A stretch of DNA of 64,000 nt, taken from the NCBI GenBank assembly GCA_001244265.2, contig CDLV01000016.1, positions 558,001-622,000 of the forward strand, read 5' to 3'. Below, one piece after another: positions 59,708-60,367 of this stretch. This stretch comes from Microbotryum violaceum. Taxonomy: Eukaryota. The translations under genes and the position numbers were made by a program. The notes below the pieces were generated by a model, which saw only the letters and a list, made by a program, of their open reading frames with translations, did not search any database and was not told the DNA's origin. Each line of letters opens with the position of its first letter. Position 1 is the first letter of the stretch.

Positions 59708-60367
59708 CGGGATATGGTTTCCATGGGCGACATTGTCGTCCAGTACATCAACACTCGTGAGATGACAGCGGACATCTTCACCAAAGCATTGTCACGCGAC
59801 CTCTTTGCTCGGCACGCGGTCGACTCGGTATCTGTGCTCCCTGATACTCGAAGTAGGGGGGTGTGAGATCAAATATCTCCTTCATGTCCTTCTTGTATCT
59901 TGTACCTACCTCAACATCCTCCTCTCTTCGTTTTGATCACTTTTGGCCTACTTTTCACCACCTTAGCTCTCCCACTCTGGGCCTGGTCTCTGCACCTGGG
60001 CCAGGTCCGTGCGCCTGACTTTGGCTGGGCTGACTTGGGCCCAGCCAAATGGCCCCACTCTGGTTTCTCTCCTGCTCAAGCAACTTCTTGGTCTGGTCTC
60101 CCTCGGTCCTTCGATCAGAGACTTACCACCGCTTGAGCAGGTGAGCACTACTCTTCCTATCATCTTTCACCCCTCTAGATGTGGTAACTTACTGTAGTGC
60201 TTGAGCAGGTGTGTAACAAGCAACTTCTTGGTCTGGTCTCCCTCGTCCTTCGATCAGAGACTTACCACCGCTTGAGCAGGTGTGTAACAAGCAACTTCTT
60301 GGTCTGGTCTCCCTCGGTCCTTCGATCAGAGACTTACCACCGCTTGAGCAGGCGTGACAACATCACA

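Follow-up and report, generated by a model that had tools for sequence, protein, structure and literature searches.

A tandem array of variable unit number at the PBS-proximal end of Ty1/copia LTRs in Microbotryum violaceum

Does the array of GT...AG units that closes a Ty1/copia LTR in the genome of Microbotryum violaceum consist of introns, or of tandem repeats that merely read like introns in one phase? The locus lies in a stretch of 64,000 nucleotides (contig CDLV01000016.1, positions 558,001 to 622,000 of the forward strand), which is referred to here as the window and in which positions are counted from the first letter. A preliminary description of the window had proposed that the LTR at 59862-60367 ends in three intron-sized units bounded by GT and AG, that these units are lost stepwise in other LTRs, and that an LTR of a second family has the same design, which was taken to point to a shared mechanism. 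We conclude that the region is most likely a commonplace tandem repeat of variable unit number inside an LTR, and that its resemblance to an array of introns is explained by phasing. It is highly probable that the variation in unit number as a whole is of repeat-mediated, non-splicing origin.

The clear host genes in the window are a gene for an Rtf2 RING-finger protein (3046-4302) and a gene for a PRP21-like splicing factor of the SF3a type (5225-7689), and no others were recognized. The rest of the window is mostly made up of nested Copia elements, together with a Ty3/gypsy chromodomain element at 9230-12934. Two arrays of 39-nt tandem repeats in opposite orientation (51339-51468 and 53582-53828) flank a stretch of about 2.2 kb that carries a diverged Copia reverse transcriptase fragment.

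The element and its terminal array

The LTR in question is the 3' LTR (A3) of an element that we call element A and whose LTR family is referred to as family C (Table 1). The open frames of element A contain the rve integrase core and gag_pre-integrs domains within 55008-57134 and the RVT_2 domain within 57654-59318. The integrase is thus encoded upstream of an RVT_2-type reverse transcriptase, which is the Ty1/copia order, and the same order is found in a second Copia family of the window, family O. The LTRs of element A have the TG...CA ends expected of a Ty1/copia LTR; a polypurine tract precedes the 3' LTR, and the 5' LTR (A5) is followed by a PBS. The flanks of the element, CAGCC and CAGCA, match at four of the five positions of a 5-bp TSD; no clean TSD was found around any of the full elements, and the contiguity of the sequences flanking element A with each other is not obvious.

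Two further features of the internal region of element A were observed. Approximately 325 bp between the integrase and reverse transcriptase frames (57034-57359) are missing from the equivalent place in the related element B; two identical direct repeats of 96 bp, spaced 230 bp apart, form its borders. In element A the RVT_2 profile of Pfam is matched only from position 119 onward. In the RNase H region a solo LTR of family O is nested (59321-59712) with a clean 5-bp TSD, CGGGA. The LTRs of element A are free of substitutions despite this nested solo LTR, and either the solo LTR was carried through retrotransposition or the LTRs of element A were homogenised.

Both Copia families share one type of PBS, GGTTAT..GCCCA..CGA.CTACC, with variants at two to three positions just after GGTTAT. 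Copia-type elements use an internal or half-tRNA fragment as primer. The complement of the shared PBS does not end in CCA, and priming by an internal or half-tRNA fragment is therefore suggested here too; no tRNA gene was found in the 64-kb window.

Table 1. Coordinates of the LTRs, their parts and associated features within the window
Feature	Position	Strand	Characteristics
Element A	54353-60367	+	Ty1/copia LTR retrotransposon
A5, 5' LTR of element A	54353-54719	+	367 bp (506-139); basal module and one extra unit
PBS block GGTTATTAGCCCAACCGAGCTACCAG	54720-54745	+	directly after A5
Polypurine tract	59850-59861	+	before A3
A3, 3' LTR of element A	59862-60367	+	506 bp; TGTGAG...ATCACA, TG...CA ends
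Basal module	60069-60140	+	72 nt; present in every LTR copy
Odd unit (unit 1 of the preliminary description)	60141-60208	+	68 nt; GTGAGC...GAGCAG
Tandem copy 2 of module (unit 2)	60209-60279	+	71 nt; one base missing near 60240
Tandem copy 3 of module (unit 3)	60280-60351	+	72 nt
LTR terminal 16 nt, GCGTGACAACATCACA	60352-60367	+	end of every LTR copy
B3, family C LTR	37159-37644	-	486 bp; adjacent to polypurine tract; odd unit and two tandem copies
Bx, family C LTR	40210-40557	-	348 bp; PBS-adjacent; one extra unit, 74 nt; 98.1% identical to B3
B5, family C LTR	42706-43000	-	295 bp; PBS-adjacent; basal module alone; 99.3% identical to LTRs of element A
Old diverged LTR fragment, family C	19589-19742	-	84% identity; basal module alone; no adjoining PBS
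o1, family O LTR	43414-43732		PBS-adjacent; 1 unit
o2, family O LTR	45721 		PBS-adjacent; 1 unit
o3, family O LTR			solo, TSD AGAGT; not PBS-adjacent; 2 units
o4, family O LTR			3' LTR; not PBS-adjacent; 2 units
o5, family O LTR			cut by element A; not PBS-adjacent; 2 units
o6, family O LTR	59326-59707	+	solo inside element A, TSD CGGGA; not PBS-adjacent; 2 units (69 nt)
o7, family O LTR	61801	-	PBS-adjacent; 1 unit
o8, family O LTR	63059-63447		PBS-adjacent; 2 units
PBS copies	54720-54745, 42680-42705, 40184-40209, 43733-43757, 46038-46062, 63448-63470		
Host intron 1, PRP21-like gene	5644-5729		86 nt; frame continuity
Host intron 2, PRP21-like gene	5868-5941		74 nt; frame continuity; other placements possible
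Host intron 3, PRP21-like gene	7061-7133		73 nt; frame continuity; other placements possible

The TRF program reports a period of 71-72 bp and 4.0 copies at 60077-60356, with matching arrays in the other LTRs. The basal module is predicted to fold as a hairpin whose outer stem is formed by CTGCTCAAGC paired with GCTTGAGCAG (z -2.96, with equal folding in 1 of 200 shuffles). Copies 2 and 3 follow head-to-tail with the preceding sequence 60077-60143 and share 97-100% identity in a core of 65-67 nt. The last junction, before the terminal 16 nt, reads CAG/GC and not CAG/GT (a slash marks a proposed splice boundary). Re-measurement placed the three units, of 68, 71 and 72 nt, at 60141-60351, exactly as the preliminary description had done, and confirmed its LTR lengths of 506, 367 (506-68-71) and 295 bp. 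Homologous copies arranged head-to-tail, in numbers that differ between LTRs, are what a variable-number tandem repeat should show, and all units except the odd one conform to this.

The odd unit is flanked by a 13-nt direct repeat, GCTTGAGCAGGTG, contains an internal inverted repeat of 8 bp, and carries in its centre a 14-mer of which 13 positions agree with a stretch farther upstream in this LTR. Its last 25 nt or so loosely resemble the module (ACTTAC, a short spacer, then GCTTGAGCAG), and the similarity of its core to a module copy is not significant, as 564 of 2000 shuffles align equally well. The only other copy of this unit in the 64-kb window is in B3, where 52 of 55 positions are identical to A3. 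The odd unit looks like rearranged filler made by template switching; capture of a host intron is another candidate origin. A 19-nt tandem duplication (59977-60017), present in A5, A3 and B5 and missing from B3, Bx and the old fragment, constitutes a second repeat-number polymorphism in the family C LTR and is far below intron length.

Differences in unit number could also be artefacts of assembly, produced by collapse or mis-traversal of a repeat that is shared by many LTRs. The core of the repeat has three exits in a word graph, namely the odd unit, a further unit and the terminal 16 nt, and every form is therefore a valid walk, and the contigs of public runs over 59708-60450 break inside the array, the longest there being 107 nt. 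However, three of the four public runs contain a single contig of 105-107 nt that spans the path from the basal module through the odd unit to the start of copy 2, and this stretch of the array thus exists outside the present assembly as well. The window is also contiguous through 28 kb of nested repeats, suggesting long reads or clones, and the copies carry private substitutions and indels, for example a unit length of 74 nt in Bx and a base lost from copy 2 of A3. We consider an assembly origin of the unit counts quite unlikely.

GT...AG boundaries and the intron reading

The proposal that the units are spliceosomal introns in the leader RNA, possibly neo-introns derived from AGGT duplication, and that reverse transcription of spliced RNA shortens the LTRs, accounts for several features of the array. 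Each unit can be written as CAG/GT...CAG/G, and the first begins with GTGAGC. CTTAC, a sequence that we take to fit the loosest eukaryotic branch consensus alone, precedes the acceptor in all units, approximately 15-20 nt before CAG. The unit of family O reads ATAG/GTATGC...CTGAC...ATAG. The sizes of the units, 68-72 nt, match those of the three host introns that could be defined (73-86 nt; Table 1), and the similarity in size that had been pointed out earlier is thus upheld. There is also precedent in print for the creation of introns by duplication of an AGGT-containing segment (PMC3265369, PMC4974935) and, in a preprint, for spliced transcripts within maize LTRs (PMC13192763). AGGT is indeed found at the junctions of the duplicated segments here.

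The boundaries, however, depend on the phase in which the repeat is read. A5 and A3 are 100% identical, with zero substitutions in 405 compared bases (a 282-nt prefix and a 123-nt suffix), except for a gap of 139 bp. Prefix and suffix overlap by 38 nt, and the gap can therefore be placed at 39 positions (60106-60144), of which the GT at 60141 is one; the preliminary description had rightly noted that DNA alone cannot decide, since deletion between the direct repeats gives the same product. A GT start and an AG end are obtained in one chosen phase. The 4-mer AGGT occurs at 60139, 60207 and 60278, once per repeat period. Given its frequency of 0.39% of window positions (both strands averaged), the probability of at least one AGGT is 0.24 per 72-nt period and 0.235 per 69-nt period, and the joint chance for both families is approximately 0.06 before allowing for the reader's freedom of choice. 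In two other repeats, an 84-bp array in the family O LTR and a 231-bp duplication in element B, no AGGT was found on either strand. The units are bounded by GT and AG because a tandem repeat was phased on its single AGGT, and these bounds are incidental: the repeat junction happens to read CAG/GTG.

The donor context of the odd unit, CAG/GTGAGC, is good. In a comparison with host introns, which the preliminary description had recommended, a CTRAY or CTGAA branch motif was found in none of the three units and in all three inferred host introns, a small sample in which CTGA followed by A, C or T lies about 15-25 nt before the acceptor. In addition, unit 1 contains an earlier TAG between CTTAC and the proposed acceptor, and the copy that would be retained as exon has 97-100% identity with units 2 and 3.

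The two LTRs of element A bear on the proposed route of loss. In standard reverse transcription, a single minus-strand U3-R-U5 is the source of the two LTRs in a new copy, and with a spliced leader both would be equally short and without the unit; A3, however, keeps the 139 bp that are missing in A5. As A5 and A3 are otherwise identical, the comparison of their sequences does not support the view of the units as introns lost through spliced RNA. The argument from symmetry is weaker if element A is a recombinant of two insertions.

Therefore, the GT-AG intron architecture put forward in the preliminary description is not supported: its boundaries are an artefact of phase, the branch motifs are missing, two other arrays lack AGGT, and the LTRs of element A are unequal. 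We regard spliceosomal introns in the leader as a very unlikely explanation of the units. Equally improbable in our view is a fuller scenario in which duplication of an AGGT-bearing hairpin module of U5 would have created spliceable neo-introns in the leaders of two fungal Copia families, removal by the spliceosome would have made the duplications tolerated, and retrotransposition or cDNA-mediated conversion from spliced RNA would have fed short LTRs into the position beside the PBS. A search for splice junctions in RNA-seq data is confounded in this case, because genomic copies of every "spliced" form exist; junction reads alone would not show splicing.

Unit number and LTR position

The other LTR copies of family C bear out the earlier report that all three units are present in both 3' LTRs (37159 and 59862), and that the PBS-adjacent LTRs at 54353, 40210 and 42706 have one or none. 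Compared over the shared 259-280 nt, the copies fall into two clades, one with A5, A3 and B5 (99.3-100% identical) and one with B3 and Bx (98.1%), with approximately 95% identity between the clades. Each clade includes a copy of the three-unit form with one and the same odd unit (A3 and B3), which makes this form older than the divergence of the clades. The one-unit form is likewise found in both (A5, Bx), and the form with no extra unit is represented by B5 in the clade of element A; because reduced forms occur in both clades, the loss of units must have been recurrent. A5 and Bx have each kept the last extra unit, from which it follows that a step of 139-140 bp, comprising the odd unit and copy 2, has recurred. 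The loss had been called stepwise, and a series of three, one and zero units is indeed seen, but the window contains no LTR that has two extra units, and the loss is not strictly stepwise. The basal-only state of the old fragment may predate the duplication.

Element B (37159-43000) is a composite, consisting of B5, internal sequence up to the equivalent of position 56630 in element A, Bx with its PBS and about 50 nt of leader, internal sequence from the equivalent of 56631, and B3. Bx is thereby located inside the integrase region. The inserted LTR-PBS-leader block (40160-40560, reverse strand) has its start precisely at the end of the LTR (plus TG), with 2-3 nt of microhomology where it rejoins, and resembles a partial cDNA that was captured or the product of a template switch. 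The internal region of B also contains a tandem duplication of 231 bp (40851-41319; 2.0 copies, 96% identical) that is missing from element A.

Additionally, we classified eight copies of the family O LTR in the window (Table 1). This LTR ends in a 69-nt tandem unit beside the same type of PBS. No similarity was detected between the LTRs of families C and O (78 of 300 shuffles score equally), in agreement with the preliminary description, although as elements the two families are related, with the same PBS block and 66-76% nucleotide identity in pol. A hairpin in the family O unit is not significant in its context (z -0.59). The nested solo LTRs of family O have clean TSDs, CGGGA and AGAGT. 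Two PBS-adjacent copies, o1 and o8, are preceded by a polypurine tract and pol and followed by a PBS and internal sequence, an arrangement that indicates tandem arrays of elements sharing an LTR. Three loci on metagenome contigs represent distant relatives (36-47% protein identity), which are too distant and too few to count; no terminal array of ~70 nt was seen in them, and TRF gave 0, 2 and 1 rows, none beside a recognised LTR end.

When both families are taken together, the full set of units is present in one of seven PBS-adjacent LTRs and in all six younger LTRs that are not adjacent to a PBS, or in six of seven of the latter with the old family C fragment included. In one-sided Fisher tests the values are 0.004 and 0.015, respectively; they are indicative only and overstate the case because the LTR copies are few and non-independent (subfamilies, local duplications). 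In each of the three candidate 5'/3' pairs (A5/A3, Bx/B3 and o2/o4) the short LTR is the 5' one. The reduction of units in PBS-adjacent LTRs is a real pattern, and it is not fully explained. Of the shared design beyond chance that had been claimed for the two families, a PBS-proximal tandem unit of ~70 nt that is reduced in the PBS-adjacent copies of both is retained, and the intron mechanism is not.

How might such a pattern arise? The array occupies the PBS-proximal end of the LTR, probably its R/U5 side. In one lineage, the 72-nt hairpin module would have been tandemly duplicated twice and the 68-nt rearranged filler inserted, resulting in four copies of a homology block of ~67 nt that share the motif GCTTGAGCAGG. 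Shorter LTRs would then be formed by homology-driven deletion between these direct repeats, with the loss of 139 bp when the basal module is joined to copy 2 and of 211 bp when it is joined to copy 3. The 38-nt overlap of prefix and suffix places the 139-bp deletion inside the homology block.

With respect to the step of deletion, it seems possible that reverse transcriptase switches template while it copies plus-strand strong-stop DNA from the minus-strand U3-R-U5. After transfer, the plus-strand strong-stop DNA would serve as template for the minus strand of the 5' LTR and would thus give rise to both strands of the 5', PBS-adjacent LTR and of no other. As strong-stop DNA would form the 5' LTR alone, a slip at this step would delete units in the 5' LTR only and leave a short 5' LTR and a full 3' LTR, while slips in other copying steps would result in a change in both LTRs, or in a heteroduplex. 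A slip in strong-stop synthesis fits the direction of the asymmetry, and it fits Bx, an LTR-PBS-leader fragment that has the shape of an extended plus-strand strong-stop product. We favour this step tentatively, with a confidence somewhat short of even. A retroviral review (PMC3187697) reports that direct repeats of 50-75 bp in retroviral LTRs vary in copy number, that 41% of single cycles removed a 110-bp repeat, that switching rates are alike in RNA- and DNA-templated synthesis, and that plus-strand strong-stop DNA copies U3-R-U5 and part of the primer.

The same architecture could have been reduced after integration instead, by replication slippage, by unequal or ectopic recombination between LTRs, or by transcription-associated instability of the repeats in 5' LTRs. 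Breakpoints inside the homology fit such deletions equally well, and the setting is a heavily rearranged nest with solo LTRs, with o1 and o8 bearing internal sequence on both sides, and with the B composite, which has no TSD and whose outer LTRs belong to different clades (95% identical). On the other hand, random loss should hit 5' and 3' LTRs alike, whereas the short LTR is PBS-adjacent in all three pairs and six of seven PBS-adjacent LTRs are reduced; moreover, the absence of substitutions between A5 and A3 implies that little time has elapsed. Deletion after integration is a reasonable candidate, which we consider only slightly less likely than the strong-stop step.

The strong-stop explanation has difficulties of its own. 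No element has a clean TSD, so that recombination between elements, instead of a single insertion, may have produced some of the 5'/3' pairs; this applies especially to Bx, which lies in the middle of another element. It also matters on which side of the putative R/U5 boundary the array is situated. If it is in U5, the long form would be inherited only from parents with long 5' LTRs, and none was seen in the window; if it is in R, the 3' end of the RNA could pass on the long form. Should PBS-adjacent LTRs indeed be born shorter through strong-stop slips, LTR pairs would be non-identical at the time of insertion. LTR-based dating and the detection of LTR pairs in fungi would then be affected, and genomes would carry a step-specific signature of errors in reverse transcription.

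Comparison with known systems

Arrays of this kind in fungal Copia LTRs did not come up in searches of open-access text, and the nearest parallels come from other systems. Introns gained by AGGT duplication (PMC3265369, PMC4974935) resemble the present units in their AG/GT junctions and in the restoration of the parental sequence when a unit is removed; those cases, however, carry RNA evidence of splicing, while the units described here are known from DNA and are without the branch motif of the host. Maize LTR retrotransposons (PMC13192763) offer a precedent for introns inside an LTR. In that preprint the LTRs are long, the introns have a mean length of 1303 bp and the transcripts are non-coding, with neither tandem units nor a link to LTR length.

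Retroviruses offer a closer parallel. According to PMC3187697, the tandem repeats of retroviral LTRs are, like those described here, direct, approximately 70 bp long, located inside the LTR and variable in number. Deletion between direct repeats by reverse transcriptase is described there with breakpoints within the homology and with joint loss of one repeat and the intervening sequence, as in element A; it was measured in retroviral vectors, whereas here the step is suggested by the excess of short PBS-adjacent LTRs. The retroviral repeats are situated in U3 and act as enhancers according to the same text, but the array in family C, as known from its sequence, is built on a hairpin module and lies beside the terminal 16 nt of the LTR and the adjoining PBS, a position that is less usual than that of a U3 enhancer repeat.
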